Origin: Dehalococcoidia bacterium
Lineage (GTDB): Bacteria; Chloroflexota; Dehalococcoidia; DSTF01; WHTK01
NCBI GenBank assembly: GCA_009377745.1
Contig: WHTK01000016.1
Span: forward strand, 1,328-65,327
Length of the DNA stretch: 64,000 nucleotides
Reading direction: 5' to 3'
Of this stretch, positions 23,506 to 56,875 are shown piece by piece. Position numbers and translations under genes: made by a program. A model generated the notes under the pieces. The model worked only from the letters and a program-made list of their open reading frames with translations, made no database searches and was not told the DNA's origin. Position 1 is the first letter of the stretch. Each line of letters starts with the position of its first letter.

Positions 23506-23955
23506 TTACGCTAATAGCCGTCGAATTGCTTCTCTCTGTTCATCAACTGCAAACGTTACAAGCCCTCTAAGTGCCTTTTCACTGACAGACCGGGGCATCA
23601 CTGGATCACCTAGCGCCCTAACCTTGTCTTTCACATCCACAGCGAGGCTGAGAAGGGTCAGCGCTTGGGTTACGCGGGCACGGGAGACGCCTAGCTTTCG
23701 CGCGAGGTCAGCCCGTGAGCGCACCTCCCCGGCGACAATCCGTTGCTGCCATTCTTCTGCCAAGATAACGGGATTGCGCTGCTGGCGCTCAGGCTTGGCC
23801 GCCTCCTTAAGAACCAAGACCGGTGAGGCGGAGCTCCTTGTTTCGCTAAACTTAAACTCGTGTGACTGGCGCGCCCCTTGATAGGATGATCGAAGCGTCG
23901 CCAATACGCTAAGCTTCAGGGAAGTTCGGGTTTTCCCCCGGCCTGGGGGAGCCAA
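23506..23955 (-). CDS. ParB-HTH-only protein (central ParB/Spo0J HTH domain, no N-terminal CTP-binding domain) - repeat-module copy 1
   Basis: ...KPERQQRNPVILAEEWQQRIVAGEVRSRADLARKLGVSRARVTQALTLLSL..; conserved N-terminus RTSLKLSVLATLRSSY. Palindromic upstream 23956-23980 and divergent leader ATGACTCGGGACAAAGG at 23987. Confidence 0.6.
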   Translation of the reverse strand: MAPPGRGKTRTSLKLSVLATLRSSYQGARQSHEFKFSETRSSASPVLVLKEAAKPERQQRNPVILAEEWQQRIVAGEVRSRADLARKLGVSRARVTQALTLLSLAVDVKDKVRALGDPVMPRSVSEKALRGLVTFAVDEQREAIRRLLA

Positions 23956-24747
23956 TTTAACACATATGTTCTAGACTGGTGCGATGACTCGGGACAAAGG
24001 TGATCGGTCTCCGAAGGTAGTGCAGCGGCGTGACGCGCTTGAGTAAGGACCCTCTGGAGGTCATAGAGCGCTCTCCTTGCAGAAGCTGGTGAGCGCTCCT
24101 ACCGTTCAGAATGGCTTATGATCAGCATCAGGCGAATTCCGAATGCTGTCACGTGCCTCCGACTCCAGTCGCTGCTAAGACGTAACCTGCAACGGAACCG
24201 CCCTTACATTTAGGGCCTCCCGTGTTCGCGCTTTCTACTGCCCGCAAAGTGCTTCAGGAGCGGCCGTTGGGATCCAATTCGTGCTCTGTGCAGTATTCTC
24301 AATCAGCATTCGGCGTTGGCGCCTGGCGTGAAAGGAGCTTGAGGGAGTTGCTCGATGACCGAGAGGCGAATGTTCGTTGGCCCAACGAATCCGAGTGCAG
24401 AACCTATTTGTACACTTGACCGGGAAACGGCTCTAGCGCGGCAGGAACCGCCGGACAGATTTCTCGACTCAGCCTTTGATCAGAAGGCCATGGCTACAGG
24501 TATAGAGTATCGGTTTCGGCAATCGGACGACCTATGGGACAGGGCGCAGACTTTCATCAAGGAAGAGGCGTTGTGTTGCCCGTTCCTCGGTTTTGAAGTC
24601 GCAGAGCGAGACCAAACGTGGTACTAAGAATCTTTCGGCCGGAGATAAGCGTCGACTAAAGGTTCAACGGTCGGGCGGCCGTCTGGGATGAGCAGCCGGG
24701 TTACAATCCCTTGTTCTTGGAGCCCTTCCGGTCTTCTGCGCTACAAT

Positions 24748-24823
24748 TGCCAAATCTGCGCGGGGGTAGCTCAGTTGGTGGAGTACGTGCCTTCCACGCC
24801 AGGCTGCCGCGAGTTCGAGTATC
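24748..24823 (+). tRNA. tRNA-like gene (canonical 5' half, degenerate 3' half; anticodon arm non-canonical, loop contains TTCCA) - probable tRNA pseudogene or indel-affected tRNA
   Basis: GCGGGGGTAGCTCAGTTGGTGGAGTA... ...GAGTTCGAGTATCGTCCCCGCTCCA. Acceptor pairs but T-stem has a G-A mismatch and the C-run is one nt shorter than in repeat A1. Downstream 13 nt (tttacccagattt) also shared with A1. Confidence 0.45.
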
Positions 24824-24982
24824 GTCCCCGCTCCATTTACCCAGATTTCCGAGTCGAACCACGACACCCTCCGAATAGGTATGTGTCGGTGATTGTTCAG
24901 CCAGCTTCTACCACGAGCAAGCTCTCGCGCGGTACGCCTGGTTAAATTGGTCGTCCGCTAATCGTCCGCTGCTCCAATATCA

Positions 24983-26950
24983 TCATGGTCTCAATTTGTG
25001 TTGGCCAGACGATTTTAGAGTTGGCGGTGGCAGCAACCGTGTTGAGTTAAGAATGAATGTCAACTCGGAAACAACGTGAATGAGAGCTGCCAAGAGCGGT
25101 CCGAGTAGCCCGGATGCAGCTAGCACCATTCCAGCCATATCGACAGCTAAGGTTCCGGCAAAGTTCTGCATGATTACGCCACGTGTGCGACGACTGATCC
25201 GCAGAGTGTCAACGAACTTCGAGAGGTCATTGCCAATTAGGACGACGTGCGCACTCTCGCGCGTTACGTCGGTGCCAGACCCCATCGCCACCCCAACACT
25301 AGCCTCGGCCAAAGCAGAAGCGTCATTGATGCCGTCACCGAGCATTGCGACCGTGTGCCCGCGCGCCATCAGTTCCTGGACGCGCATGCGCTTCTCATCC
25401 GGCAGCATGCCGCCGGCGAATTCGTCAATACCGAGGTGTCGGGACGTTACCTCCGCAACAGCTGGCTGGTCCCCGGTCAAGAGAACGGTTCTCAAGCCCA
25501 TGGCCTTTAGCGCGCAAACGGCTTCGACTGCTTCAGGGCGGAGTGTGTCGGCAAGCAGGATGGAGCCGAGCAGATGACCGTCCCTTGCAACGAGAACTTC
25601 CAATGCTTCGCGGGGCTCTTCTTTCTCGTCAGTTAGCCCGATTCCTCGCTCACTCAGGAAGGCGCGCGTGCCAGCGACAGACTCCCTTCCGGCGAGAAAC
25701 GCGACAACGCCTTTCCCCGGCGAGTATTCAAACGCGTCCGGCTCGGTGACCTCAACGCCTGCTGTCCGCGCGTACGCCATGATGGCGCGGCCCAGGGGAT
25801 GTTCGCTCCGGGCTTCAGCAACGGCGGCCGCCTGGACAACATCCCTAGGAGATGCTCCGTTCGCGGGGATTACGGCCTGGACTGCGGGTGTTCCGAAGGT
25901 GAGTGTGCCGGTCTTGTCCAGGACGACGGTGTCGACTGCCCACAAGGTTTCGAGGTATCTCCCGCCCTTGATGATTGAGCCTTGCCTCGCAGCACGGCCG
26001 ATGCCGCCAAGAATCGCCAAAGGCGTTCCGGCAGCGATACCGCAGGCTCCGGCAACGATCACCACGGAGATCGTCGAGTTCATGTTTCTGGTCAGCAAGA
26101 AGGTCAGCCCTGCGGCGGCGAGCGCAAAGTAGACGAGGTATCCGGATAGCCGGTCCGCGGTCCTTTGAACTGGCGCACGCGAACGTTCGGCGTGCTCTAC
26201 AGCTTCGACGATCTTGCCGAAGGTCGAGTCCCGCCCTAAGCGCTCGGCGCGCAGTTCCAGCGCTCCCGACTGATTAACCGTACCGGCAAATACCTGATCG
26301 CCGGGTCCCTTCTCAGCGGGCATGGCCTCTCCAGTGATCGTCGTCTCGTCAACATAGGAGGAGCCGCTCAGCACCGCACCGTCGACCGGTATGCCGGCGC
26401 CTGGGTTAACCAGCACGATGTCGCCAACCCTCAGCTCTCCTATAAGTACCTCCTGGGTTTCAAGACCGCGCCGCACCAGCGCAGTGCGGGGCAGGTAACG
26501 CAGTAGATCCTCAATGGCGTGGCGCCCACGCGCCACCGTTAGGTTCTCGAGCACTTCGGCGGCCAGGACGAAAGTGGCAATCACGAGTGCTACAAAGACT
26601 TGGTTGATTGCAAGCGCCGCGAGGAGCGCGATGGCCATCGACAGCTCCATCGTCATCCGGCGTTGGAGCAAGTTTTCCGCCGCCTCCTGCAGGATTGGCC
26701 AGCCACCAATGGCAACCACTAGGCCACCGCTTGCGATGAGCAGTCCCGCAGGCACATCCGCGGTGCGAGTCACTATCCAGACGGCCAGGGCGGCGACCGC
26801 AAGGCAGGCGATTCGCGTAAGGTCTACCAGGCGGACGCCGTGCTCTGCCTGGCCGGCCTCGTCAGGCTGTTCCACCGTTCGAAGTTCGGTAGCCACTGGG
26901 CCTCCCAGTTCTGTTCTGTCGATGGCGCTGTTCGTTGTTGGGCCGGTCAT
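24983..26950 (-). CDS. P1B-type heavy-metal-translocating P-type ATPase lacking N-terminal HMA domain; non-canonical TM6 motif (IVAGACG instead of CPC)
   Basis: DKTGTLT, TGDQPAVA, GDGINDASAL, VAMGSGTDV motifs; 655 aa. Confidence 0.8.
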   Translation of the reverse strand: MTGPTTNSAIDRTELGGPVATELRTVEQPDEAGQAEHGVRLVDLTRIACLAVAALAVWIVTRTADVPAGLLIASGGLVVAIGGWPILQEAAENLLQRRMTMELSMAIALLAALAINQVFVALVIATFVLAAEVLENLTVARGRHAIEDLLRYLPRTALVRRGLETQEVLIGELRVGDIVLVNPGAGIPVDGAVLSGSSYVDETTITGEAMPAEKGPGDQVFAGTVNQSGALELRAERLGRDSTFGKIVEAVEHAERSRAPVQRTADRLSGYLVYFALAAAGLTFLLTRNMNSTISVVIVAGACGIAAGTPLAILGGIGRAARQGSIIKGGRYLETLWAVDTVVLDKTGTLTFGTPAVQAVIPANGASPRDVVQAAAVAEARSEHPLGRAIMAYARTAGVEVTEPDAFEYSPGKGVVAFLAGRESVAGTRAFLSERGIGLTDEKEEPREALEVLVARDGHLLGSILLADTLRPEAVEAVCALKAMGLRTVLLTGDQPAVAEVTSRHLGIDEFAGGMLPDEKRMRVQELMARGHTVAMLGDGINDASALAEASVGVAMGSGTDVTRESAHVVLIGNDLSKFVDTLRISRRTRGVIMQNFAGTLAVDMAGMVLAASGLLGPLLAALIHVVSELTFILNSTRLLPPPTLKSSGQHKLRP

Positions 26951-27225
26951 TTCAAGTACGCGCGAACGACATCGACGAGCTGCTCTACGGCCCGCCCATC
27001 CTCTGATTTCGGGTCAAGTGGCCGAGTAACGATAGGGTCTCGAATGAATCCTTCGAGCACTTCGAACATGAGCCCGTTCATCGCGCCCCGGGCTGAGGCG
27101 ATCAGGCGTAGGGTCTCGTCGCAGTCTGCCTCTTGGACCAGCGCGCGTTCGACCGCATCCATCTGCCCGCCGATACGTCGGACCCGGGCAATGAGCTTCT
27201 GTTTGTCCCGAATGAGATGAGCCAC
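26947..27225 (-). CDS. CsoR/RcnR/FrmR-family (DUF156) metal(loid)-sensing repressor, 4-bp overlap with ATPase start
   Basis: MAHLIRDKQKLIARVRRIGGQMDAVERALVQEADCDETLRLIASARGAMNGLMFEVL (RcnR-like N-terminus HxIRDKQK). Confidence 0.75.
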   Translation of the reverse strand: MAHLIRDKQKLIARVRRIGGQMDAVERALVQEADCDETLRLIASARGAMNGLMFEVLEGFIRDPIVTRPLDPKSEDGRAVEQLVDVVRAYLK

Positions 27226-27395
27226 AACTCGCCCTCCACAGTTCGATACCTAGGGGGACTATAGTACATTCGGCGGCCCGGGCCATATGCCAAGGCTGAA
27301 TAATGGCGGAATTGGACGCAAGATGAAATCCTCGGAGCCATACTGGATTGGCCGAACATCTAGAATGTTACGGCCGTAACATCTAACATCCTTGC

Positions 27396-27965
27396 ATGGG
27401 TAAGCGTGCGTGGCTCCTGTTGACCTATAAGGTTCCGCCCGAACCAGCGCGTCACCGTATCGCACTCTGGCGCCGGCTGAAGGGCCTGGGCGCCGTTTAC
27501 CTCCAGAACGGGGCCTGCCTCCTGCCGAACAGCGATGAGCACCTTCGCCGGCTGAAGATTCTTGAAAATGACATCATCGAAATGCGCGGTGAGGCCGTTC
27601 TGCTCGAGGCGGCGGGGCTGGACGCTCACCAGGAAGAACGTGTTGTCCAGCGTTTCAATGCAGAACGCGATGAGCAATACCAGGAGTTCCTCGGCCGTTG
27701 CGCCGACTTCCACGCTGAAATCCTGCGCGAGACCGAAAGCAATCACTTCTCGTATGCGGAGCTCGAAGAGAACGACGAGGACCTGAAGAAGCTGCAGGCC
27801 TGGCTACCGAAGATCCGCAAGCTTGACTTCTACGCCGCGCCGCTCGCGACGGCGGCCGAGCAGGCACTGAAGGACTGCGAAGGGGAGCTGGACACCTTTT
27901 CCCGCCTCGTCTTCGAGGCTTATGAGGAGAATCGGGCCACCGGCGAACGGACGTCTCCAGCGTGA
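27396..27965 (+). CDS. ChrB-N-terminal-domain-like protein (chromate-resistance regulator-like), paralog of 29896-30423
   Basis: WLLLTYKVPPEPARHRIALWRRLKGLGAVYLQNGACLLP motif; family assignment from memory, moderate-low certainty. Confidence 0.4.
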   Translation: MGKRAWLLLTYKVPPEPARHRIALWRRLKGLGAVYLQNGACLLPNSDEHLRRLKILENDIIEMRGEAVLLEAAGLDAHQEERVVQRFNAERDEQYQEFLGRCADFHAEILRETESNHFSYAELEENDEDLKKLQAWLPKIRKLDFYAAPLATAAEQALKDCEGELDTFSRLVFEAYEENRATGERTSPA

Positions 27966-28933
27966 TCTGGGCTCTCTGGGTCGTCGTCCTGGTAGCTGGC
28001 GTCGCGTTAATTGTCTGGGGCGCCGAAACGTTCGCGGAGCATCTCGGCAGGGCGGCTACGCGTCTCGGCGTTGGCGCCTTCGCGCTGGCACTGCTCCTGG
28101 CGGGCGCCGAGCCGGAGGAGCTCGCCACGGTGGTAACGGCATCCCTTCGCGGAGCGCCCGGTATCGCCTTTGGCGACATCATCGGCACAAACATTGCCAT
28201 GTGCACTGTCGCCCTTGGCCTCGGCGCCGTGATCGCCACTCTTCCTTTCAGTCCGCGCGTCTTCCTGTACGCGGTCGCTGCTCTGCCGGTTGGCGCATTC
28301 GGCGTTGTCCTTGTCTGGGACGGCGAGCTCTCCAGGCTGGAGGGCGCAATCCTTGTCCTGCTCTACGTCGTGTATGTCGCGGTCATCTGGAGGCTCGAGA
28401 GGGCGCCGCCTCTGCTTGGCGAAGTGGAAGAGTTGGCCGAGGCAGAGGAAGAAATGGCGGTCCGGCCGGCGGTTGCGAGCCAAAGGCGCGTCGGAATCGA
28501 GCTGGGCCTGGTGCTCGCAGGCTTGGCGGCGATGGTCGTTGGCTCCACCGCCCTGGTCGAAGCGGTCCGCCAGATCACGAGCATCGAAGCGACGCAGACC
28601 AAGCTGGGCCTGACCCTCGTCGGATTCGCAACGGCATTCGAGCTGGTGATGCTCGTCTGGTCCGCCTCCCGGCGTGGTGCGACCGACGTGGCGCTTGCGG
28701 GAGTGGTCGGCTCCTTCGGCTACAACATGACGATGAGCCTGGGCGCTGGCGCCCTGGTGAAGCCACTCGCGCTCACGGACGCGACTATTCTGCGCGCGCC
28801 CGCTGTGGGCATGATCGTCCTGCTCGTGGCAGTTCTCGCCCTCGCGCTGCCGACCAGGCGCCTCGGGCCGCTCGCCGGCCTGGGACTGCTCGCCACCTAT
28901 CCAGTCTTCGTCCTACTCGTCGTGCTGCTCTAG
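27962..28933 (+). CDS. Ca2+/Na+ antiporter (CaCA) family membrane protein
   Basis: Two alpha-repeat regions: GAETFAEHLG...GAEPEELATVVTA and ATQTKLGLTLVGFATAFELVMLV; about 10 TM. Confidence 0.7.
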   Translation: MIWALWVVVLVAGVALIVWGAETFAEHLGRAATRLGVGAFALALLLAGAEPEELATVVTASLRGAPGIAFGDIIGTNIAMCTVALGLGAVIATLPFSPRVFLYAVAALPVGAFGVVLVWDGELSRLEGAILVLLYVVYVAVIWRLERAPPLLGEVEELAEAEEEMAVRPAVASQRRVGIELGLVLAGLAAMVVGSTALVEAVRQITSIEATQTKLGLTLVGFATAFELVMLVWSASRRGATDVALAGVVGSFGYNMTMSLGAGALVKPLALTDATILRAPAVGMIVLLVAVLALALPTRRLGPLAGLGLLATYPVFVLLVVLL

Positions 28934-28954
28934 CCTTCAGTGGCGCAGTACGAC

Positions 28955-29803
28955 CTACGGCGACCAGGGCCGAGCCGGATTCGTGAATGCGCCGCGCCCA
29001 ATGAAGGAGCCTTTACTTGCAAGCTCTTCCTCGATCTCAAGCAAGCGGTTGTACTTGGCTGTACGTTCACCCCTCGCCGGGGAACCGGACTTGATCTGCG
29101 CGGCGCCAGTAGCGACGGCGAAGTCGGCTATGAATGCGTCGTCCGTCTCGCCTGAGCGGTGGCTGATGACACAGTTCCAGTCGGCCTCGTGACTGAGATT
29201 TACTGCCTCTAACGTCTCTGTGAGCGTACCGATCTGATTCAGCTTGATGAGACTGCTGTTGCATGCCCTCAGTTCTATCGCCTTCCGAATCCTTTGCGGG
29301 TTCGTTACGAGCAGGCCATCGCCGACGATCTGGCACTGCGCGCCCAGGCGTGACGTAAGGGAACTCCAGCCCTGCCAATCGTCCTGAGCTAGGCCGTCCT
29401 CGATTGAGCAGATCGGGAATCGTCTCGACCAGTCCCACCAGAAGGCAATCATGTCGTTGGTGTCGAGGACGGAACCTTCCTTCTTGAGGCTGTAGCTGCC
29501 ATCCTCGTGCAGTTCGTCCGTGGCCGGATCAAGCGCTATCACGATGTCTTCTCCGGGCCGATAACCGGCCCGCTCGATCGCAACGAGGACTGCCTCGATC
29601 GCCGCCTCATTATTGGGCAAAGACGGTGCGAAGCCGCCTTCATCGCCGACTCCACCTCTGATGCCCCGTTCGTGCAGCAGATTACTCGGCTGGGGCTGCC
29701 AGTTCCCTATGACCCAAACCTGCTCATCGAAGCCGTGCGCGATCTCGTGAACCTTGGCATGGCATGGGTAGAAGAGGAAGGACCGGAGCGGAAGATTTAC
29801 CAC
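28955..29803 (-). pseudogene. Enolase (phosphopyruvate hydratase) lacking the N-terminal ~140 residues - truncated copy
   Basis: GGVGDEGGFAP...SLIKLNQIGTLTETLEAV...SHRSGETDDAFIADFAVATGAAQIKSGSPARGERTAKYNRLLEIEEEL are enolase C-terminal barrel motifs; the ORF N-terminus is non-enolase sequence. Confidence 0.65.
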
Positions 29804-29895
29804 GGCCCGGATCGACCCATACCCAACGGTCTGCCGGTCGAACGATTGGCGGCTTTAACACGCGTTAATTGAGAACGATGCGGTGGTCCATGCGC

Positions 29896-30423
29896 TCAAC
29901 CTTCGAGAGATGCCCTCTCCTCAAATTGGGCGAGCGCCTTCTCACAGTCCTTCAGGCAGTCTTCAACCTGCTGGCGTTCCGGGACGCCCAGCACGTCCCT
30001 TGCAACGACCTGGGATAACCAACGACGGCGCTTTTCGAGGTCTTCCTCCAGCTCTTCCACTTGCACGAACCTGAAGTCTCCCGCCTCGGTCACGCGCTTG
30101 ACGTGATCGAGAAATCGTTGACAGATCTGGAGCAGGTCGACGTACTCCTCGCGTCGCACGCCGTTAAACGCGGTGCGCAGTTCCTCCTCCTGACCAGCAG
30201 GCAGATCCCCGACATAAAAAGCATTCGCCTTGCCGCCTAGCGTTTTGATTTCATCGACAAGCTTCTCGACCGAGGGCGTCAGCGAGGGCAGGTGCGGAAG
30301 TAACCAGACACCAGACTCGATGTGTACGGCGCCCAGCTTTCGCAGGTGCCGCCAAACCAGCACTCGTTTCCGCGAGGGCCCGGCAGGAAGGCTATAAGAG
30401 AGGAGGAGCCAATGGCTATCCAA
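29896..30423 (-). CDS. ChrB-N-terminal-domain-like protein (second paralog)
   Basis: WLLLSYSLPAGPSRKRVLVWRHLRKLGAVHIESGVWLLP. Confidence 0.4.
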   Translation of the reverse strand: MDSHWLLLSYSLPAGPSRKRVLVWRHLRKLGAVHIESGVWLLPHLPSLTPSVEKLVDEIKTLGGKANAFYVGDLPAGQEEELRTAFNGVRREEYVDLLQICQRFLDHVKRVTEAGDFRFVQVEELEEDLEKRRRWLSQVVARDVLGVPERQQVEDCLKDCEKALAQFEERASLEG

Positions 30424-30509
30424 TAGACTTGACCTCTTTCGCGCCCCTGACTAACATGCAGGCGAGATGTAATACCTATTACATTTTAACCGGACCAGGA
30501 GCGCCAGGT

Positions 30510-31274
30510 GGCATGAAAGACATTCTATTAGTCGCAGCGTCTTTTTTGGCCTGCAGCGTGGAGATGGTCGAGGCAATGACCATCGTCCTGGCGGTTGGCG
30601 TCACCCGCGGCTGGAAGGCGGCACTGGCCGGAGTCGGCGCCGGCTTTCTAGCGTTAGGCGTAGTCGTCGCCGCGCTCGGTCCAACACTCGTAAATGTGGT
30701 CCCTTTGGATGTCCTCCAGATCGTGGTCGGCACGCTTCTGCTGATATTTGGCATGCAGTGGCTCCGGAAGGCAATCCAGCGCGCCGCCGGCGTGAGGGCA
30801 AAGCACAACGAAGACCAGATCTTTCGTGACGAAGTATCCGAGCTCGAAGGCGAAGCATCGGTCGCCACGGCCGGCCTCGATTGGACGGGCTTCGTCGTCT
30901 CATTCAAGGGCGTATTCCTGGAGGGGCTCGAGGTGGCATTCATCGTCCTTACGTTTGGAGCCAACGAAGGTAGCTTTACGCTCAGCGCAATCGGCGCACT
31001 GGTTGCCTTTGTGGTGTTCACGAGTCTCGGTCTGGTGCTTCATCGCCCTCTCAGCCGCGTGCCCGAGAACTCAATCAAGTTCACGGTCGGGATCATGCTC
31101 GTCGCCTTCGGTACTTTCTGGGGCGGTGAGGGCATCGGCGTCGATTGGAAACTTGGAGACGTGACAATTCTCGTTGCCGTTGCTATCTACAGCGCGGTCG
31201 CCTTCCTACTGGTTGAAGCCATGAAACGGCGCTATAGAGCGCGTCTGGAGCCGAATCTGGAGGTGGCCCGGTGA
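30510..31274 (+). CDS. Polytopic membrane protein of unknown family (ORF opens at 30429; MKDILL start more likely)
   Basis: About 6 hydrophobic helices, internal duplication (EMVEAMTIVLAVG / LEGLEVAFIVLTFG). Confidence 0.4.
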   Translation, partial: GMKDILLVAASFLACSVEMVEAMTIVLAVGVTRGWKAALAGVGAGFLALGVVVAALGPTLVNVVPLDVLQIVVGTLLLIFGMQWLRKAIQRAAGVRAKHNEDQIFRDEVSELEGEASVATAGLDWTGFVVSFKGVFLEGLEVAFIVLTFGANEGSFTLSAIGALVAFVVFTSLGLVLHRPLSRVPENSIKFTVGIMLVAFGTFWGGEGIGVDWKLGDVTILVAVAIYSAVAFLLVEAMKRRYRARLEPNLEVAR

Positions 31275-48727: not shown

Positions 48728-48995
48728 CGATCACTCCTTTGATTGGCGCGAGGCGCCTCTACGGGATAATTCCCAATGCATGGACGAGCACGATCCGGAC
48801 TATAATCGCTCTACCAGATCTATTCAAGAAGCGTTGAGAGGAGACGAAAAAGTATCTCATTTTTGTAACGCAATCGAAGAGGCGTAAGCCCGGGGTCGGC
48901 CATAAGGTGCGGAGGCTTAGCCTCGGTCGCGGCAGGTGACACGGGAAGTCGACCGGAGGATAACGCCGGTGGGTAGTCAGGAGGAAGCCAAAGCC

Positions 48996-49745
48996 TTATT
49001 GGTCAATAATCACGAACTCGTCGGACAGGATGCTGACGACCTGGTCTGAAGTCTCAAAGATGACCTCTATCCGATAGGTGCCAGCACTTATGGGAGCGTC
49101 CAGCAGGCTGAAGGGGACACCGCCTTCTGACCGAGGAGAATCCTCAGGGAGTATCCCCTGGGGTACCTCCGTCGCAGGCAAGCGTGCGGCAGGTGGCTCA
49201 GTGGGGATAGTGCGCAAATCCTGGTCGAACTTTCCAGCGCTGGACGGGCCGCCCAGGATCGGTTGGGGGACCCCGATGAAGCCCGTGAGGGTCCCATCAG
49301 GAGCGATGAAGTAAGGCGATAGAACGCCCGGCGAAGTACACTCCAACTCGGTCCAACCGCTACCATCCTGGCGCCAGATTTTGGCGACAACGCACTGACT
49401 TCCTTCCCCGGGAACACGGATGGCCTCCGCTAGTTCATTGCGGATTGTCACCTTGATCTCTTCACCTTCCTGATATTGCTGCTTGTCCAGCAAAACGCTG
49501 ACAGGACTGGCTACCGGTTGCGAGGCGCTCGTTGTCGGTCCGGGTGTGCCCGCTGGGAGCAGTGGAATGCTGGTTGCCTTCGGCGTCGCGGTCGCTATGC
49601 TCTCGAGAGTGGGTCTGTCAGTCTCGCCTTCAGGCTCACTCTCTCCCAGAGCAGAGGAGCATGCGAACGCCATTGCTACGGATAGCAGAAGGATAGCAAG
49701 CTGTAGCTGTCTCATCTCCGATGCCTCCTCCTTCACGTCTAGCAT
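48996..49745 (-). CDS. Secreted hypothetical protein
   Basis: Signal peptide MRQLQLAILLLSVAMAFACSSALG (lipobox-like). Confidence 0.45.
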   Translation of the reverse strand: MLDVKEEASEMRQLQLAILLLSVAMAFACSSALGESEPEGETDRPTLESIATATPKATSIPLLPAGTPGPTTSASQPVASPVSVLLDKQQYQEGEEIKVTIRNELAEAIRVPGEGSQCVVAKIWRQDGSGWTELECTSPGVLSPYFIAPDGTLTGFIGVPQPILGGPSSAGKFDQDLRTIPTEPPAARLPATEVPQGILPEDSPRSEGGVPFSLLDAPISAGTYRIEVIFETSDQVVSILSDEFVIIDQ

Positions 49746-49924
49746 ATCGCAGCCGGTTCGAAATCATCGCGGCCGCCGGGCGCTCGAGATCCTAATCTAG
49801 AGACGTAGAATCCTTGTCGAAGGTTCCCAGACGCAGATGGCAGGCCGCGTGGACAAACGCAACCTCTCGGCGGCAGGGTGGGTCCGCGAAACCGCATTTT
49901 TCGCGTACCAAGGCAGGTCGCAGA

Positions 49925-50412
49925 GTTCATGGCCTTGAGACATGGGATTCCTTCTTCTCTCTGCTCATCAACTGCGAACGATGCAAGCCCTCTAAGCGCC
50001 TTTTCACTAACAGACCGGGCATCGGATCGCCTAGCGCCCTAACCTTGTCATTCACATCCACAGCGAGGTGAGCAGGGTCAGCGTTTGGGTCACGCGGGCA
50101 CGGGAGACGCCGAGCGTTCGGGCGAGATCAGCCTTTGAGCGCACCCCGCCGTCGGCGAGGCCGTCGCTGCCACTCCTCGGCCAGGACGATGGGGTTACGC
50201 TGCTCGCGCTTGGGCTTGACCGGCTCCCTGAGAACAAGCCGTGGTGCCGTACGTGCGGCGAGATCGCCAAACTCGAACTGCGGTGATGACTTGGAGCGCT
50301 TGTAGAATGACCTGAGCGTCGCGAATACGCTAACCTTCAGGAGAGTTCGGGGTTTCACTCGGCTCGGGGAGCCAATATAACACAGATGTTCTAAAATGAC
50401 CGCGATGCTCAA
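49925..50412 (-). pseudogene. ParB-HTH-only gene - repeat-module copy 4, frameshifted
   Basis: ORF 50128-50412 gives VKPRTLLKVSVFATLRSFYKRSKSSPQFEFGD...KPKREQRNPIVLAEEWQRR then garbage. ORF 50052-50270 in another frame gives ...KADLARTLGVSRARVTQTLTLL. The 3' region is about 90% identical at nt level to 23506-23700. Confidence 0.5.
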
Positions 50413-50556
50413 GAACCTTGATGATCAGCAACCTCATGGGAAGACACGTCAAGACCAGGCGCACGCGGTCGCGCCGTCAGTTGCCGGGGGAGTCGTCTCG
50501 CTAGCGTCTGCCTGACCAACGGCCGCAAACGGTTGTAAACTCTCCAGAGAGCGGCC

Positions 50557-50574
50557 GAAATAGACCAACGGACT
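50557..50574 (+). repeat. 18-bp box GAAATAGACCAACGGACT, exact inverted copy of 5758-5775
   Basis: Direct comparison of both loci; both lie next to tRNA-Lys-like fragments. Confidence 0.6.
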
Positions 50575-50620
50575 TACGTCGAAGTCCCACGGTGGCGCGG
50601 CCGTCTCAGATTCAAAACAG

Positions 50621-50657
50621 GGGCCTCTAGCTCAGCGGTAGAGCAGCGGACTTTTAA
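50621..50657 (+). tRNA. 5' half of a tRNA-Lys(UUU) gene (acceptor 5' strand, D-arm, anticodon stem 5' strand and loop CTTTTAA); 3' half absent locally
   Basis: GGGCCTCTAGCTCAGCGGTAGAGCAGCGGACTTTTAA then non-tRNA sequence. Combining with the 3' fragment at 5840-5896 reconstitutes a nearly canonical cloverleaf (one C-A mismatch in acceptor). Confidence 0.55.
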
Positions 50658-50681
50658 CCTCCTGGTGCGGCAGGCAATCAA

Positions 50682-50716
50682 GTCCCCCGGTCCCAAAGCC
50701 TTTGGGACCGGGGGAC
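50682..50716. other. Perfect 17-bp GC-rich hairpin (GTCCCCCGGTCCCAAAG C CTTTGGGACCGGGGGAC)
   Basis: Checked base by base; every position pairs around a single central C. Confidence 0.6.
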
Positions 50717-50782
50717 CCCAGTCGGATGCCACTCTATGGCTTTCTCCGCCCTCACCTGTGGGGCGCATTCACTCCAGGCTGG

Positions 50783-52139
50783 TTACTCAACGCGATATCC
50801 CGCTGATTGCCAAGCTCCCACTCCGCCATCGAGATTGATCAAGTCGCGGAACCCGGCGGACTCAAGCAATGAGATGCCCGTCGATGAGCGCTCTCCATGG
50901 CCGCAGTAAACGACTACGGGCCGGTCCCGAGGGATGGTGGCGGCCTTCGCCGCCAAGCTCCCCAGTGGTATGTGTATTGCACCCTCGATATGACCGGCTT
51001 GGTACTCTGAGACTTCCCTGACATCAAGACTGACTGCGCCCTCAAGGAGGCGTTTCCTGGCCGTCGAGGCATCAGCAAGCTCGACGTGTCGCAGCTCTCG
51101 TCCTTGCGATTGCCAGGCTTCGATGCCTCCGCTGAGCCAACCGCCGAAGTTCTCATAGCCCACCAGTAGCGACTCTTCAAGGATTCGAACCAGTGGCGTG
51201 CCATCGGTTACGAAGAGCAGCAGTGAGTTCTCAAGTACCAGCCAGCCTAACCAGATCGGGTAGACGTCTCTGAAAGTGTCGCTCAACGAACCAGGGAGAT
51301 GCCCGTTGGCATAGTCCTCCTTGGACCGGACATCGACCACCACTGCTCGCGCTCGCAACGCCTCGAACTCCTCGGGGTCGAGCGCACGCGGCGGCGCAAT
51401 TTCTCGCACCAGGCGTGGGCCGCTTTGGTTCACTGCACGCAACCGAAAGAAGTAGTCGGGGACGGCCGGAAACGTGGTGGGCAGCCAGTTCGTGAAGGTC
51501 TCTTCATCTTCGATGGCCAGCACCAAGTTTTCGCGGCGTTCCCGTCCCAGAGTTGATGTGCGCTCTCCTCCGCTGCCCACCGAGCAGAAGGAACCACCAC
51601 CGTGAGTCGGGTAGAGGATGGTTTCGTCAGGCAGGTGGGAGAACGCGTGGTGCAGGGTCCGATACTGGGCTCGCGTCAAGGCTTCTGTAAGGTTTGGCGA
51701 AATGAGGTCTGTGCGCGCTGCGCCACCGACAATTAGGGAACCGCCACTGAAGAGCAATGGCGGGCCCGATGCTGAGCGAACCACGTAACTCAAGTGCTCG
51801 GGTGTGTGACCCGGCGAAGCTAACGCGGTGACCTCACATCCCTGCAAGTCAACGGACTCTGCGCCCCGTAGACCTCGATGCGGCAACTTGAGCTCCGCCT
51901 CACTGGGCGCGAAGATCGGTACGCCCGTCTGCGACGCAAGCTCATTGGCGCCGGAAACGAAGTCCGCGTGCAGATGCGTCTCGAAAACGCCGGCCGGCTT
52001 CAACCTGTTCGATGTCAAGGCATGCAAATAGCGCTCCCACGGTCCGGTCCGGGTCAATCAAGACAGCGGCACCGTTACCGAGGTCCACGACGTAGGAACT
52101 GTTGCCCAGGCCCTCGTGCACGAATTGAATTGCTCTCAT
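50783..52139 (-). CDS. Persulfide dioxygenase (MBL fold, ETHE1-like) fused to two rhodanese domains (CstB/Blh-like); frameshift near 52050
   Basis: N-terminal ORF MRAIQFVHEGLGNSSYVVDLGNGAAVLIDPDRT; main ORF HLHADFVSG...SPGHTPEH; C-terminal rhodanese CGHGERSSTGISLL. Confidence 0.7.
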
Positions 52140-53407
52140 GGCACCACCTTACTTGTTTGAAGTTCATGAGGTTTGCGGCCGGCGACGGTGAAAGCCGCCA
52201 CTACTCCCGAAAGGATCGTTATCGCCGCCACGGTTTGAATCGCAATGGAGAAGCCGAGGGCGTCGGCCAGGATGCCGCCAAGCAGAGCGCCCGCAATGGC
52301 CCCAGCATCCCGCCAGAAGCGATAAACGCCCAATGTCGAAGCACGATGCTGCGGATGAACCGCGTCGCCGATGGCTGCAAGCAGCGTTGGGTAGACCATC
52401 GCCGTACCGATGCCTACCAGGGCGACAGCGAGCATCCACAAAGCGTAGGAATCGGCCGCCGAAGCCAGCCAGATGGCAAGTCCCTGGAGGAGCATCCCAC
52501 CTACGATCAACGGTCTACGTCCGGCCACGTCGCTTAGCCAGCCGGTTAGTAGCTGAAGCGCGCCCCACATCAAGGGATAGAGAGACGCCAGGATGGCAAT
52601 GCGCTCGATACTCAAGCCCTTGCTGGCGAAGAACAGCGGGAAGATGCCCCAAATCAGGCCGTCGTTGAGGTTGTTGACCAAGCCCGCCTGAGAGATGCCC
52701 CAGAGCCGAGGCCGCCGCCAGCTTGCCTCCGCGAATGTCGTTCTCAGGGGCTGTTGCACGGTCGGCGGACGCTGCGTGGCTTCCAACGCTACGAATGCGC
52801 CGGTGTCCTTGACCAGCAAGGTGCTTAACGCAAGGCCACAAGCGACAAACACCACACCCAGGTAGAAGGGCTCCGGTCTGAGTCCGTAGTGTTGAGCAAT
52901 CACACCGGTCATATATGCGGCAGCGGCCACCGCCATGTAGCCCGCTGCCTCGTTGATGCCGAGAGCGAGGCCACGCTGTCGAGGACCCACGAGGTCTACT
53001 TTCATGTTCACGGTCATCGACCACGTCAAACCCTGGTTGATACCTAGCAATAGGTTAGCCGCCACTATCCAGCCCCAGGCGGGCGCCCACATCAAGACGA
53101 AGGGCACAGGTAGGCCAACCAGCCAGCCTGCGACAAGAAGCCTCTTACGGCTGAACCGTCCGGATGCGTGGCCCGCGAAGAGGTTGGTAAGCGCCTTAGC
53201 CAGGCCAAAGGTCGAAATGAATGAGACGGCCGCCGTCTTGGACGTGATGCCGAACTCGCTCTCGGCGAGCAGGGGCAAGATGGTGCGCTCCAGGCCGACC
53301 ATGCCACCAACGCAAGCATTCACAGCGACCAGGAGGGCGAACTGATGCCAGTTCGCCCTCAGGCCGAGCTTCATTGCTCCGGAGACCTGTTCACCGGAAG
53401 TGTTCAA
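52136..53407 (-). CDS. MFS transporter
   Basis: 12 TM; MFS motifs GHASGRFSRKRLLVAGW, LSDVAGRRPLIV. Confidence 0.75.
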   Translation of the reverse strand: MNTSGEQVSGAMKLGLRANWHQFALLVAVNACVGGMVGLERTILPLLAESEFGITSKTAAVSFISTFGLAKALTNLFAGHASGRFSRKRLLVAGWLVGLPVPFVLMWAPAWGWIVAANLLLGINQGLTWSMTVNMKVDLVGPRQRGLALGINEAAGYMAVAAAAYMTGVIAQHYGLRPEPFYLGVVFVACGLALSTLLVKDTGAFVALEATQRPPTVQQPLRTTFAEASWRRPRLWGISQAGLVNNLNDGLIWGIFPLFFASKGLSIERIAILASLYPLMWGALQLLTGWLSDVAGRRPLIVGGMLLQGLAIWLASAADSYALWMLAVALVGIGTAMVYPTLLAAIGDAVHPQHRASTLGVYRFWRDAGAIAGALLGGILADALGFSIAIQTVAAITILSGVVAAFTVAGRKPHELQTSKVVP

Positions 53408-53447
53408 AGGGCAGGCTCCGCCTCATTCGACTTCCCGAATGGCATCC

Positions 53448-54070
53448 TTAGACTTCGGTCAAACGCAGATATGGCTTCTCCTGCCGGTAGCCCTGTGGGA
53501 AGAGCTTGTCTGCTTCTTCGTTAGAGACGGCGGGGAGTATGACGACCTCGTCGCCGTGTTGCCAGTTGGCGGGAGTCGCGACGCGGTGGGAGTCGGTAAG
53601 CTGCAGCGAGTCGATCACTCGGAGCAATTCGTCGAAGTTCCGGCCGGTCGAAGCCGGGTAAATCAGCGACAGCCGGACGATTCCCTTTGGGTCGATAACG
53701 AAGACTGACCGGACGGTGGCCGTTGCGCTCGCCTGTGGATCGAGCATGTCGTAGAGCTGGGCGACCCGGTCGGAATCCGCGAGCAAGGGAAATTCAGGGC
53801 ACTCTTCTGCGTCTCTTCAATGTCCAGAGCCCACTTGGAGTGTGATTCGAGCGGATCAACGCTGAGGCCAATTACCTTAACGTTGCGCTTCTCGAACTCG
53901 GGCTTGAGCCGCGCCACCATGCCGAGCTCAGTCGTGCAGACCGGCGTGAAGTCCGCCGGGTGCGAGAAGAGTACCGCCCAGCTGTCTCCCTGCCATTCAC
54001 GGAAGTGAATGGTCCCTTCAGTTGATTCCTGAACGAAGTCAGGCGCGTCACTACCGAGTCGTATCGTCAT
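53448..54070 (-). CDS. 1-Cys peroxiredoxin (Prx6-like), frameshift near 53790
   Basis: MTIRLGSDAPDFVQESTEGTIHFREWQGDSWAVLFSHPADFTPVCTTELG ... then second ORF ...SVFVIDPKGIVRLSLIYPASTGRNFDELLRVIDSLQL. Confidence 0.65.
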
Positions 54071-54331
54071 TTTGATCCTCCTACTGTTGCTTGAGCTAAC
54101 AGCCGTACCAAGACGCCGAAGAGTCTGTTGAAATCCCTGGCCGAGTTTCTACGAGGAACCCTCCGGGCGCTTGTACGCACTAAACGTGATCCCACGTGTC
54201 TCGAATTCTGCAGCGTCTGACTCGTGCTTTGAGCCTGAAAAGACGTCTACTTCCTGACCCCAGCGGACGTTGCTAAAGCCCGTGTGGTCCAGTACCCACT
54301 GCCACTCTGCATACTGCAGAGCGCCCGCGAT

Positions 54332-54960
54332 TCAACCAGACCAGAGCTCGATGTCGTCTCTGGCGCTCTGTGGCACGGGCAAGTGGACGATGATATCGGC
54401 GATTCGGAACCGGCCGCCGGGCTTGAGCACTCGCCAGACCTCGCGCATGGCCTGCACTTTGTCAGGGGTTAGGTTGATGACACCGTTGCTGATGACGACG
54501 TCGATGCATGAGTCCTCAACCGGTAGCGTCTCCAGGTAGCCAAGGCGCGCCTCGACATTCTTCAGGCCCAAGTCCTGGGCACCACGAAGCGTCTTGTCGA
54601 GCATCGCTGGCGTCATGTCTACGGAGATCACGCGGCCTGTATCGCCCACCTGACGAGCCGCAATGAGGGAGTCGAAGCCAGCACCGCAGCCGAGGTCAAG
54701 AACCACTTCACCGCGCTTGAGCTTACCCATCAGGAACGGATTACCCGTGCCGGCGAAGGAGTCTACCGTGCCCTGAGGTAACGCATCGACCTCGGCATCC
54801 GCATAGCCAGCATTCGAGCCAGCGAGCGTCCCGTGTGGAAGTGAAAGCCATGGCCTGGGTCTAGCGCCACGTCCGTGTACTTGGCCTGGATCTGCTGACG
54901 CAGGTCGTCTCGATCTACGGCTGCTGGCTGGACCCCGCGTTCTGTGTCCGTCATCTGCAT
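54332..54960 (-). CDS. ArsM-like arsenite/SAM methyltransferase, frameshifted (N-terminal ORF 54763-54960, core 54332-54730, C-terminus in a third frame)
   Basis: VLDLGCGAGFDSLIAARQVGDTGRVISVDMTPAMLDK...DVVISNGVINLTPDKVQAMREVWRVLKPGGRFRIADI. Confidence 0.5.
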
Positions 54961-54963
54961 CTC

Positions 54964-55221
54964 CTATTGGGATCTTTCAAATACAGGGCTCGGTTCGTCG
55001 ACTTGTTGGTGTTCACCCGGCCCTTGATTGCTGACGACCTCACGCCTGCGGATGTGCTGTCGCAGTGTGCCGTAGAGCTCATGGCCGAAGCCCTTGAGGT
55101 TGTAATGAATGCCGATATGGTCTGCCAGTTGTTCGACTACCTGCTCAATCGTGTCGGCCTCCGCCGAGAAGCTGCAGTCCTGCCACCCTACGTCTCGGCA
55201 ATCGATGTAGTACTTGCTCAT
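54964..55221 (-). CDS. DUF1059 small metal-binding-like protein
   Basis: MSKYYIDCRDVGWQDCSFSAEADTIEQVVEQLADHIGIH. Confidence 0.5.
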   Translation of the reverse strand: MSKYYIDCRDVGWQDCSFSAEADTIEQVVEQLADHIGIHYNLKGFGHELYGTLRQHIRRREVVSNQGPGEHQQVDEPSPVFERSQ

Positions 55222-55394
55222 GTCTCTGTTCGGCCCTCCTTCTAGAGGATTCGCAACAACAAGGTCCCGCCAAGACGGCGACAGCAGAGATTTTCCTAAC
55301 GTCCGGGAATGAACACTGAAGCTCCTAGCCCTTTCGAGACGAGGACAGAGGCGCCGGAGATGTCGCTCGCGGCGCCGCCATCCGCGCGATTGCT

Positions 55395-56252
55395 CTAGCG
55401 CGATACCGTGACCCGCAAGAAGGTCGCAGGAATGGACGTCGTGTTTGGGCTGGTGCTTCTGTTCTGTTCCTTGAACAGGTCCTCGAGCTCCGTTTGTAAC
55501 TCGTCTGCCCGTCCGTCCTTTTCTGCAGCCTCGAACGCATTCATCGTCGGGCCGTAGAAAGTCCGGAAGGCGGCGACGAAGTCGGCGGGCGAGCTGGGGT
55601 AGTTGAACGTGTAGGTGTCTCTCTCACAGGAGATCTGCTCCTTCGAGATACCCGCAGCGCCAAAGCGCTCGACTACGTTGCTTTCCACGCCCCAGGTCAT
55701 CGGGCTGATGGTGCCTTCCGGCGGTGGTGGCGAATAGGAGGAGCTGATCCTCAGGATCTGTGCGACCAGCGTCGGGTCGTTGGGGATCCAGTTTCCCATG
55801 ACAATGCGGCCGCCTGGCCGGGTCACGCGTACCATCTCCCTGGCCACGTCGAACGGCTTGGGCGCGAACATGGCGCCGAAGATGCTCACAACGAGGTCAA
55901 AGGAATCGTCTTGCAGGTCCCGCAAGTCTGTCGCGTCGCCTTGCTGGAACCTGCAATTCGTGAGGCCCATTGCCTCGGCGCGCTTGTTGCCGGCCTCGAC
56001 GAGGTTCCTCGCGATGTCGACCCCCAAAACAGCCGCGCCGAGCTTTGCTTCGGGGAAGGCAGTCGTCCCGTCTCCACTGCCGAGATCGAGGACCCGAAGC
56101 CCCTTCGTGATGCTGAGGCCCTGCACGAGCGCTTCGCCGCTCTCGCGCATGCTCTCCGCTATGCGTGTGAAGTCGCCCTTCTCCCAGAGGGCCTGGTTAG
56201 CGTTGATCTGGTTCGTTGTCATTGACGTACTCGCTTTCAAGTTGCTAGGCAC
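55395..56252 (-). CDS. Class I SAM-dependent methyltransferase
   Basis: VLDLGSGDGTTAFPEAKLGAAVLGVDIARNLVE...TRPGGRIVMGNW. Confidence 0.65.
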   Translation of the reverse strand: MPSNLKASTSMTTNQINANQALWEKGDFTRIAESMRESGEALVQGLSITKGLRVLDLGSGDGTTAFPEAKLGAAVLGVDIARNLVEAGNKRAEAMGLTNCRFQQGDATDLRDLQDDSFDLVVSIFGAMFAPKPFDVAREMVRVTRPGGRIVMGNWIPNDPTLVAQILRISSSYSPPPPEGTISPMTWGVESNVVERFGAAGISKEQISCERDTYTFNYPSSPADFVAAFRTFYGPTMNAFEAAEKDGRADELQTELEDLFKEQNRSTSPNTTSIPATFLRVTVSR

Positions 56253-56699
56253 TTTGTCGTCTGTTCGGGATGCTCTACCCGGCGCTCTGTGTGGGTCATC
56301 TGCACCTCACGCAACCGAGGATGCTGGATCCGCCAGCGGGATTTGCCGGCATTCTGGATTCGCTGCTTCATCCTCGAATATTGACTCTGCGGTCAATGCT
56401 TTCAGGTATAAGGCTCCTGCTGGTCAGCTCTTAGCGCTGCTCTTTCTCTTAAGGACGAAGCAGGTCGCCGCGAGAAGGACGACGGTAAAGGCAGTCATAA
56501 TCAGCCAGGTCTCGATTACTGGGCGTGAGAAGCTATCGCCGTACTGAGCAAGCAATGGCGGCCCCAAGGGCGAAGCGCCATTCGCGAAAAACTCATTTAG
56601 ACCGACGCTGTGACCCAGGGATTCAAAGGACCAGCGGTCGGACATGAGGACGCTCGTCGCCTTGCCAATGAACGCCATGATCGGGACCGGCAGGATGGC

Positions 56700-56875
56700 A
56701 CCGGAGAAGAGCGCTTAAATTGGTGTGCCGAACGAGAGCGCCTCTCGAATGACCGAAGCGTCGCCAATACGCTAAGCTGCAGAAGAGTTCGGGTCTTCCC
56801 CCGGCTCGCGGAGCCAACATAACATATTTGTGCTAATCGCAGACGATGCCTAAGAACCTTTGAGATAATCAGCAT
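56700..56875 (-). pseudogene. ParB-HTH-only gene - repeat-module copy 5, 5' fragment only
   Basis: GKTRTLLQLSVLATLRSFERRSRSAHQFK then non-homologous. Upstream palindromic region (56805-56830) and divergent leader homologous to copy 4 (gatgcctaagaaccttt vs gatgctcaagaaccttg). Confidence 0.45.

Follow-up and report, generated by a model that had tools for sequence, protein, structure and literature searches.

A five-fold repeat in a Dehalococcoidia contig as the probable distal end of stacked integrative islands at tRNA-Asn genes

A stretch of contig WHTK01000016.1 from a Dehalococcoidia bacterium, 64,000 nucleotides long and referred to here as the window, contains five copies of a repeat that consists of a small gene and the DNA at its 5' end. 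The gene encodes a protein with the helix-turn-helix (HTH) domain of ParB only, called ParB-HTH below, and at its start the repeat duplicates the tRNA-Asn(GTT) 3' end. The repeats are likely to be the distal ends, one each, of islands that integrate site-specifically at the 3' end of tRNA-Asn(GTT), and to punctuate a tandem stack of these islands. Such an end would consist of (i) the core of the attachment (att) site, TCG(C/G)GGAGCCA, which duplicates 11 nt of the tRNA-Asn 3' terminus; (ii) an island-side arm of ~70-90 nt, the most strongly conserved DNA of the module; and (iii) the ParB-HTH-only gene. The gene would be transcribed from the junction into the island, and its first codons, GS(A/P)SR..., would therefore be encoded by core and arm.

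The repeat and the tRNA-Asn gene

A repeat search of the window detects the family (D1) as five copies of 110 nt, located at 23862-23971, 34501-34610, 44927-45036, 50283-50392 and 56725-56834, with spacings of 10639, 10426, 5356 and 6442 nt. Sensitive tblastn and blastn searches recover exactly these five copies in the 64 kb and none further, in agreement with an earlier note on this DNA that had described five minus-strand ParB-HTH copies. That note had also given the gene about 150 aa and taken the fourth copy to be frameshifted and the fifth to be a 5' stub, and reading of the open reading frames (ORFs) bears this out. Copy 1 (23506..23955, minus strand) is an intact gene of 149 aa, and its first ~90 nt form the island-side att arm. 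Copy 2 (34097..34576, minus strand) is intact as well, with 159 aa and a GTG start, as is copy 3 (44544..45002, minus strand), with 152 aa counted from GTG; the listed ORF of copy 3 reaches upstream to 45278 because there is no stop codon in between. Copy 4 (~49955-50358, minus strand) is a frameshifted pseudogene of the copy 1 type, spread over several frames. Copy 5 (56714-56836, minus strand) retains the first ~110 nt, with the arm and ~30 codons at 56714..56805, and is then joined to the C-terminal tail of an unrelated hydrophobic ORF. The N-terminal peptide of the copies is RTLLKLSVFATLRSFYKRS, and the HTH block is present in copies 1 to 3.

The gene bodies and the DNA upstream of them are grouped differently. 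Copies 1 and 4 are 86-96% identical in the gene body (repeats D4, D5 and D7) and copies 2 and 3 are 70% identical (D3). In a five-way alignment of the upstream DNA, copies 1 and 3 have a further ~45 nt in common, and copies 4 and 5 another ~25-30 nt; the sub-family mosaic pointed out earlier is thus confirmed by both repeat search and alignment. The module has no second conserved gene: the genes that follow copies 2, 3 and 4 are mutually unrelated, and the gene after P0003 in locus L121 is unrelated to the gene after copy 3. A miniature transposon was considered and rejected, as no terminal inverted repeats or target duplications were seen and the 3' limits of homology vary between pairs of copies.

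Among the copies and two metagenomic relatives, nucleotide identity peaks at 0.84-0.87 in the segment from +8 to +67 after TGGCTCC, compared with 0.72-0.76 in the HTH core. The conserved segment (the first ~70 nt) opens with TGGCTCC(G/C)CGA, which is the reverse complement of the tRNA-Asn(GTT) 3' end TCG(C/G)GGAGCCA. Read on the plus strand, the att-type cores lie at 23943..23954 (junction 1, CTGGGGGAGCCA, a degenerate copy of the tRNA-Asn 3' end), 34582..34592 (junction 2, TCGCGGAGCCA, identical to the 11-nt 3' end of tRNA-Asn in locus L091), 45008..45018 (junction 3, TCGCGGAGCCA), 50364..50374 (junction 4, TCGGGGAGCCA, identical to the 11-nt 3' end of the locus L001 tRNA-Asn genes) and 56806..56816 (junction 5, the distal end of the array, TCGCGGAGCCA). 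The window cores show two acceptor variants, G and C, and each of them occurs in real Chloroflexota tRNA-Asn genes.

In related loci the same motif stands in a fixed relation to real tRNA-Asn genes. A set of 120 such loci, including genome loci and metagenome contigs, was scanned with a local copy of ARAGORN and yielded 12 tRNA genes, 7 of them tRNA-Asn and the others mostly neighbours in the same clusters. Assuming that tRNA-Asn makes up ~4% of tRNA genes, we estimate the chance of finding 7 among 12 at ~1e-7. The seven genes belong to six loci (L001, L011, L052, L069, L086 and L091) from three phyla, Chloroflexota, Fermentibacterota and Planctomycetota, and every one of them lies on the strand opposite the motif or ParB-HTH gene, downstream of it and 1.4-6.2 kb away. 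The tRNA-Asn(GTT) gene ends in TCGGGGAGCCA in L001, in TCGCGGAGCCA in L091 and in TCGGGGAGC, without an encoded CCA, in L086. The motif opens with the reverse complement of such an end, letter for letter (TGGCTCCCCGA or TGGCTCCGCGA); in L091, L001 and L086 its variant agrees with the local tRNA. Direct repeats were verified in L011 (Fermentibacterota), with 10 nt at two junctions, and in L052 (Planctomycetota), with 9 nt; L069 (Planctomycetota) has the same core, mismatched to its own tRNA. The layout of tRNA gene, island and displaced copy of the tRNA 3' end is the classic one, with ParB-HTH as the last gene of the island, reading inward from the repeat.

Tandem arrays also exist outside the window, for example in L011 and L060. 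L011 has a single tRNA-Asn gene and, after it, three ParB-HTH genes at intervals of 2.2-3.3 kb; the 10-nt repeat precedes two of these genes, and the locus is a small-scale counterpart of the window array. Across phyla, the pattern GCTCC[CG]CN[AG] is found at the expected 5' position in 58 of 100 ParB-HTH hits, versus 4 of 100 in either of two controls. The cargo of the six islands in contact with a tRNA-Asn gene comprises an LRR lipoprotein, HerA/NurA, a Schlafen-like protein, AbiEi, beta-propeller proteins, APH and a methyltransferase. The earlier suggestion that the repeat is the conserved end of small integrative cassettes accreted in tandem is therefore supported, by the att-type tRNA-Asn core, the direct repeats in related loci and the arrays elsewhere. 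Separately, L001 has two near-identical tRNA-Asn genes on the same strand, at 13926-14000 and 20011-20085, 6 kb apart, the second within a Leu-Gln-Asn cluster; the 6-kb stretch between them may be an island with a complete tRNA-Asn copy of its own.

A 29-nt pattern derived from the conserved segment, GCTCCSCGAGNNGRGKGAANNNCCGAACT, matches 39 metagenome contigs and has no match in viral contigs. About one-third of the 39 have a ParB-HTH ORF next to the motif, and the rest, many of them AT-rich, have only short ORFs. With so many motif contigs devoid of a ParB-HTH ORF, the motif is conserved as DNA, independently of the gene. Three contigs, L096, L104 and L119, have one common left flank (with a TIR-like and a HicB-like gene, both recognised by eye) and three different right flanks that start at the motif. 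Many matches lie at contig ends, and the contigs of the closest homologues are short and end at or near the motif, as expected of a multi-copy repeat.

Two further observations concern what follows the motif. In AT-rich contigs (L102 at ~890-1110, L098, L101, L106, L110, L111, L115 and L118) a conserved stretch of ~100 nt, and no ParB-HTH gene, comes after the motif; 33-codon 'ORFs' such as GSPSRGKIRTFFTISLIISLPIGKQ recur in it, and L102 has a tandem pair of these units at a distance of ~110 nt. An arm-type site, a small peptide and an RNA are all conceivable for this segment. The sequence after the core in L090, L094, L115 and L118 could be a natural tRNA trailer, but seems to fit an element-borne arm better: the same sequence follows the real tRNA of L086, which also has a second motif 1.4 kb away.

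The recombinase and the competing explanations

Which enzyme would integrate such islands? Genes for large serine recombinases (LSRs, with Resolvase, Recombinase and Zn_ribbon_recom domains) occur in 10 of 79 genome loci, as judged by neighbour clustering and Pfam. Among the 92 nearest ORFs on the far side of 55 junctions, LSR is the commonest Pfam family (5 of 92), with Phage_integrase at 2 of 92. In L047, L055, L072 and L077 the LSR gene adjoins the repeat with its 3' end, and recombinase, core and ParB-HTH stand in this order. L007, which is among the closest Chloroflexota relatives, has a fragment resembling an LSR C-terminus (hhalign P = 8e-4, a modest value) that stops 37 nt short of the core; searched as protein against plasmids, this fragment had no match. 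The core of L007 lies midway between perfect 14-nt inverted arms that are 27 nt apart, a site shape that looks like a serine-integrase attP or the junction of two tandem elements, and L118 has inverted arms 11 nt long and 58 nt apart. Considering the junction frequency, the 3' ends abutting the repeat and the L007 site, a serine recombinase is the best candidate for the integrase, and on balance we lean towards an LSR as the cognate enzyme. In the window itself, a candidate LSR remnant upstream of copy 3 (a DFERGLLLLP stretch) was dropped as not significant, with an hhalign P of 0.18 and a tblastn E of 2.9.

The most serious competing explanation accepts the tRNA-Asn islands as real and assigns them a tyrosine integrase, with the nearby serine recombinases coming from other elements. 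According to PMC4383910, islands at tRNA genes mostly use tyrosine integrases; two of the 92 far-side neighbours are of the Phage_integrase family, and the arm of ~70-90 nt exceeds the typical 40-50-bp site of a serine integrase. The window even has a tyrosine integrase of its own, at 4661-5719, but this gene lies 18 kb from copy 1, beside a tRNA-Lys(CTT)-like fragment and without a tRNA-Asn core. At the junctions, moreover, LSRs outnumber tyrosine integrases and their 3' ends directly abut the repeat, and the attP-like inverted arms of L007 stand beside an apparent LSR remnant. Considered together, these points make a tyrosine integrase unlikely.

Several observations weigh against the proposal of stacked islands at tRNA-Asn, or against a serine recombinase as their enzyme. 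Most junctions have no recombinase nearby, and the six islands that touch a tRNA-Asn gene are without one. In the window, neither an LSR gene nor a remnant was found by tblastn or by blastp of translated junction flanks (chance hits only), inverted arms of the L007 and L118 kind were not found at the junctions, and no tRNA-Asn gene was found in the 64 kb (ARAGORN reports no tRNA at all, and Rfam nothing). The identity between core and tRNA covers 11 nt only, and beyond it, in the T-loop GTTCG, similarity is weak. Finally, ~20 nt of DNA on the other side of the core are conserved at all five junctions, which a simple integration model does not predict.

This ~20-nt flank occupies 23955..23974 at junction 1, where the plus strand reads ATTTAACACATATGTTCTAG, with equivalents at 34593-34612, 45019-45037, 50375-50394 and 56817-56836. 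It has the form TAGAACATATGTGTTAtrT at the five junctions and in L081, and the upstream similarity then ends abruptly. The flank contains the palindrome AACATATGTGTT and, on the minus strand, an extended -10-like TGnTAwrTT. The five-way alignment accordingly agrees with the earlier description of nucleotide similarity that runs through the start codon into a palindrome-bearing upstream stretch, here of ~20 nt. L080 and L122 lack the flank: there, homology to the window copies sets in precisely at TGG, where the core has its CCA end. Either the repeat is longer in the window lineage or the flank represents related neighbouring ends.

Beyond the flank, two outer types can be distinguished. Type 1, with a leader reading 'MTRDKG..', is common to junctions 1 (23975..24015) and 3 (45038-45085) and to L081, and is most likely part of the neighbouring island rather than a gene. 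Type 2, with the leader 'M.KNL', is common to junctions 4 (50395..50430) and 5 (56837-56870). The earlier note had counted these leaders as a divergent mini-ORF belonging to the module. As a gene it does not hold up: the frames run to 18 aa at copy 1, 60 aa at copy 3 and 5 aa at copy 5, the homologous stretch of L081 has GTG for ATG, and what is conserved is a flank.

The promoter-like flank invites a quite different explanation, namely that the copies are dispersed paralogues of a small autoregulated transcription factor, the upstream DNA being promoter and operator, the 11-nt tRNA match a coincidence and the array a product of duplication or homologous recombination. An extended -10-like TGnTAwrTT and a palindrome do lie just upstream of every copy, the window has neither a recombinase in the array nor a tRNA-Asn gene, and the codon-position pattern of the N-terminal segment resembles, by eye, that of coding sequence. 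Nevertheless, paralogy would leave unexplained the linkage and orientation relative to tRNA-Asn in six loci from three phyla, the motif without a ParB-HTH gene in AT-rich contigs, the single left flank with three right flanks, the onset of homology exactly at the CCA position, and the enrichment of LSRs, and we regard it as very improbable. Least credible of all is a role at the RNA level, in which the 5' end of the ParB-HTH transcript would pair with the tRNA-Asn 3' end in the manner of a primer-binding site or a tRNA-sensing leader: the motif is indeed TGG followed by the acceptor-stem complement, like the primer-binding site of a retroelement, and it lies at or near the predicted 5' end of the transcript, but no reverse transcriptase was seen, no Rfam family matches, the small motif hairpin shows no compensatory changes among the copies (by eye), and integration accounts for the direct-repeat geometry with real tRNA genes.

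A structured RNA in the motif was considered as a separate matter and rejected. Rfam gave nothing at either gathering or E-value thresholds for the window and 13 motif loci, and the small hairpin CCCCGAGCCGGGG is, by eye, disrupted without compensation in the window copies.

The blocks of the window and their surroundings

If the repeats are island ends, successive integrations would have produced a stack of at least four islands, and probably five. At each junction the left side would be the arm and ParB-HTH gene of the previous block, and the DNA to the right of the core would be the other end of the next block. Because each junction would then join two different islands, leader type (1/3 versus 4/5) and gene-body type (1/4 versus 2/3) would be uncoupled. 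Read in the orientation of the tRNA (plus strand), each block closes with a minus-strand ParB-HTH gene and then the core. Four blocks, each enclosed between two cores of the same orientation, carry no recombinase in the Pfam annotation, a feature they have in common with accretion arrays of cis-mobilisable elements. We infer that the blocks arrived by site-specific integration and that they were mobile; from their sequence, they seem best described as integrase-less remnants or passengers that resemble cis-mobilisable elements.

The first of the four, block 2 (23955..34592, 10.6 kb), holds a pseudo-tRNA-Gly, a P-type ATPase with CsoR, two ChrB_N genes, a truncated enolase, an OFeT-like permease, small ORFs and copy 2. 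Block 3 (34593..45018, 10.4 kb) holds an SDR protein, a GAF-PAS histidine kinase, DUF1989, YqcI, a methyltransferase, DUF2243, a 474-aa protein of unknown family and copy 3. Block 4 (45019..50374, 5.4 kb) consists of a 1093-aa DUF11 protein, a 249-aa secreted protein and copy 4, and block 5 (50375..56816, 6.4 kb) of a tRNA-Lys(TTT)-like 5' half, an MBL-rhodanese protein, an MFS protein, an AhpC fragment, two methyltransferases and the stub of copy 5. To the left, a further block ends at 23954 with copy 1. With distances of 5.4-10.6 kb and cargo that is unrelated from block to block in the Pfam annotation, the earlier account of spacing and cargo stands; the toxin-antitoxin pair that it listed in the cargo was not confirmed. 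Exact-sequence look-ups of two window proteins gave no match on record.

To the right of copy 5 lie an IS481-like HTH fragment, a zinc-ribbon protein and, between 58.8 and 63.4 kb, an aquaporin and a class A penicillin-binding protein. This side is read as chromosomal backbone, and copy 5 is therefore taken as the distal end of the array. Copy 5, beside these housekeeping-type genes, would be the oldest and most decayed. There is a gradient of decay, with copy 5 a stub, copy 4 frameshifted and copies 1 to 3 intact, and decay toward the distal end fits the entry of newer islands at the tRNA side. The five-fold repeat becomes, in this way, a map of where blocks start and end and of their probable order of arrival.

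Several details within and around the blocks may be recorded here. In block 2, the ChrB_N paralogues at 27396-27965 (plus strand) and 29896-30423 (minus strand) flank a high-GC ORF without Pfam match at 27922-28986 and the enolase at 28955-29803 (minus strand), which is truncated N-terminally, its match beginning at profile position 62; this stretch suggests pseudogenes and rearrangement inside the block. Just inside block 5, at 50620-50740 (plus strand), the tRNA-Lys(TTT)-like 5' half GGGGCCTCTAGCTCAGCGGTAGAGCAGCGGACTTTTAACC stops after the anticodon loop; next comes a long GC-rich hairpin, GTCCCCCGGTCCCAAAGCCTTTGGGACCGGGGGAC. Beyond the distal junction, at 57398-57820 (plus strand), the transposase remnant is an isolated N-terminal HTH fragment of IS481 type (HTH_23, LZ_Tnp_IS481) in which no catalytic domain was seen. 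ARAGORN found no tmRNA in the window.

The DNA to the left of the array (1-23 kb) is another patchwork, with a tyrosine integrase beside a tRNA-Lys-like fragment and with several tRNA-Gly-like fragments. A tRNA-Lys(CTT)-like 3' fragment at ~5840-5900 (minus strand) immediately precedes the integrase gene, which is at 4661-5719 on the minus strand (Phage_integrase, E 1e-35). The trailer that follows this fragment, TTTACCCAGATTTT, recurs after two tRNA-Gly-like fragments, at 19725 and 24837, and one trailer is therefore common to different tRNA-like ends. The tRNA-Gly-like sequences form a second repeat system, at 19559-19724, 23322-23465 and 24760-24836 on the plus strand and at ~14730-14800 on the minus strand. 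A 79-nt repeat, 85% identical, contains a promoter-like TAGAAT and a hairpin. It precedes a tRNA-Gly(TCC)-like sequence, of which the 3' two-thirds are present at 19640-19724, and likewise a truncated copy at 23400-23465; a full-length but degenerate tRNA-Gly-like sequence at 24760-24832 scores 22.7 bits with the Rfam tRNA model (cut-off 29). These repeats look like att remnants of another island family.

The ParB-HTH protein and related systems

In the Pfam search the match of the copies' proteins to HTH_ParB is borderline, with E values from 2.4e-5 to 1e-3 and 19.6-24.8 bits (cut-off 22.6), and the ParBc/CTPase domain (PF02195) is absent. An AlphaFold model has a mean pLDDT of 72.8; residues ~55-145, the DNA-binding domain, are confidently modelled and the N-terminus is of low confidence. 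Foldseek matches this model to the DNA-binding domains of Noc, Spo0J, ParB, SopB and KorB with a probability of 1.0 over ~90 residues and a root-mean-square deviation of 2.4-2.9 A. From the Pfam and AlphaFold results the label 'ParB HTH only' is therefore correct, and these searches uphold the conserved N-terminus, the HTH block and the missing CTP-binding domain reported before. No ParA partner was found among the annotated neighbours in the window, and the genes are not a partition system.

The start codons given for the ParB-HTH genes are tentative. In copies 2 to 4, read directly, a six-codon upstream frame starts in the TGG of the core and overlaps the GTG start of the main ORF as GTGA; in copy 1, also read directly, a 1-nt insertion brings an upstream TTG into frame. 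Among relatives of the L001 type, differences in N-terminal length amount to whole residues in in-frame translations (the L109 copy is out of frame), and the N-terminal segment is on that account probably translated.

No gene other than ParB-HTH is common to all islands, and the ParB-HTH gene overlaps the att region. Perhaps the protein is an element-encoded accessory factor or regulator that binds DNA site-specifically at the junction, for example a directionality factor or a repressor; we put this forward tentatively, as one possibility. The directionality factors known for serine integrases differ widely in structure, and this diversity makes such a role for ParB-HTH plausible. If ParB-HTH is an LSR cofactor, it would represent a new type of directionality or accessory factor for enzymes that are widely used in genome engineering. 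A more far-reaching scheme, to which we give little credence, would have a serine-recombinase cassette platform operating at tRNA-Asn across phyla. Integrase-less blocks, each with an att arm and a ParB-HTH gene, would be moved in trans, somewhat as integron cassettes are, and ParB-HTH would be a new class of LSR accessory or directionality factor. Its expression would be set by the state of integration, as recombination joined the gene to, or parted it from, an upstream promoter or recombinase operon.

A profile search returned 1319 clusters at E <= 1e-10, and the ParB-HTH family is therefore large; the best 150 listed are all 69-262 aa long. The combination of a tRNA-Asn 3'-end copy and a small ParB-HTH gene marks island boundaries in Chloroflexota, Planctomycetota, Fermentibacterota and other little-studied phyla, and is useful there because most island finders fail without an integrase. 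Two observations on individual homologues may be added. At Planctomycetota loci, including L028, L056, L040, L051 and L068, small ParB-HTH genes often lie beside pairs of extracytoplasmic function (ECF) sigma factor and FecR-like genes and beside DUF1501/PSCyt (DUF1549/DUF1553) pairs; these large families of planctomycete paralogues may spread as island cargo. In L080 (531-2507), the genes on both sides of P0005, a close ParB-HTH homologue, are maltose-O-acetyltransferase-like paralogues (Mac/Hexapep), which gives the impression that the junction unites two similar blocks of cargo.

The earlier note did not recognise the element as a described type, and in this it was mistaken: tandem islands that target a tRNA gene and include integrase-less members are a well-known kind. 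As described for the Islander/TIGER concept (PMC4383910) and in an IME review (PMC5704250), islands enter at the 3' ends of tRNA and tmRNA genes, form tandem arrays by reuse of the site, and include integrase-less members that are kept by accretion. A limited body of literature yielded no description of a tRNA-Asn/ParB-HTH island family, and we call the family undescribed provisionally. Like the tRNA islands of the Islander type, the islands considered here leave a restored tRNA gene with a displaced 3' fragment at the far end, form tandem arrays and include integrase-less members that retain att sites. The window has the displaced tRNA 3' fragment, as a direct repeat, and has neither the intact tRNA nor an integrase within an island. 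The usual Islander-type arrangement has a tyrosine integrase beside the tRNA gene, whereas here the associated recombinases are LSRs, and the sole gene conserved in all islands is a DNA-binding gene that overlaps the distal att site.

The islands at asparagine tRNA genes of Enterobacteria, for example the Yersinia high-pathogenicity island and the pks island, use the same tRNA species, and several different islands, sometimes in tandem, are found there. They differ in having P4-like tyrosine integrases, in their unrelated hosts and in that they are not known to have a ParB-HTH gene at the att site. The asn tDNAs of Klebsiella are integration hot spots (PMC4891358). With ParB, Spo0J, Noc and KorB the protein has in common the fold of the HTH DNA-binding domain; unlike them, it has no N-terminal CTP-binding ParB/Srx domain, no C-terminal dimerisation domain, no ParA partner and no parS. 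Integron cassettes resemble the blocks as cargo without a recombinase, in one orientation, with a recombination-site-like repeat at the end, and as units that may move in trans. They differ in that the window has no IntI, attI or attC and in that its blocks are 5-10 kb long, with several genes on both strands. An integron-like attC was rejected for the motif, in which R''/R' boxes were not seen (by eye), and there is no IntI and no integrase adjoining the array.

The closest described analogue is the ssrA islands of Dehalococcoides (McMurdie et al. 2011). These are arranged in tandem, with a 20-bp repeat of the ssrA 3' end, and have a serine-recombinase module that includes a ParBc protein, the repeat being embedded in a gene of the module (PMC3146451). 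About half of them have no integration module, and these are interpreted as cis-mobilisable elements brought together by accretion (PMC3146451). The two systems differ in target, which is tRNA-Asn here and ssrA there, and in range, as the present family spans several phyla. The gene at the RNA-distal end here is the ~150-aa ParB HTH-only gene, whereas there the integrase gene, DsiB, lies at attL; the ParB protein of the ssrA islands has the ParBc domain (PF02195) that is absent here, and no DsiA, RecF or Mom module was seen here. Despite these differences, both systems occur in Chloroflexota, both lie in tandem downstream of the gene for a small stable RNA and carry a short direct repeat of its 3' end, and both combine a serine-recombinase association with a repeat that falls within a conserved gene of the element and a ParB-related protein in the module.

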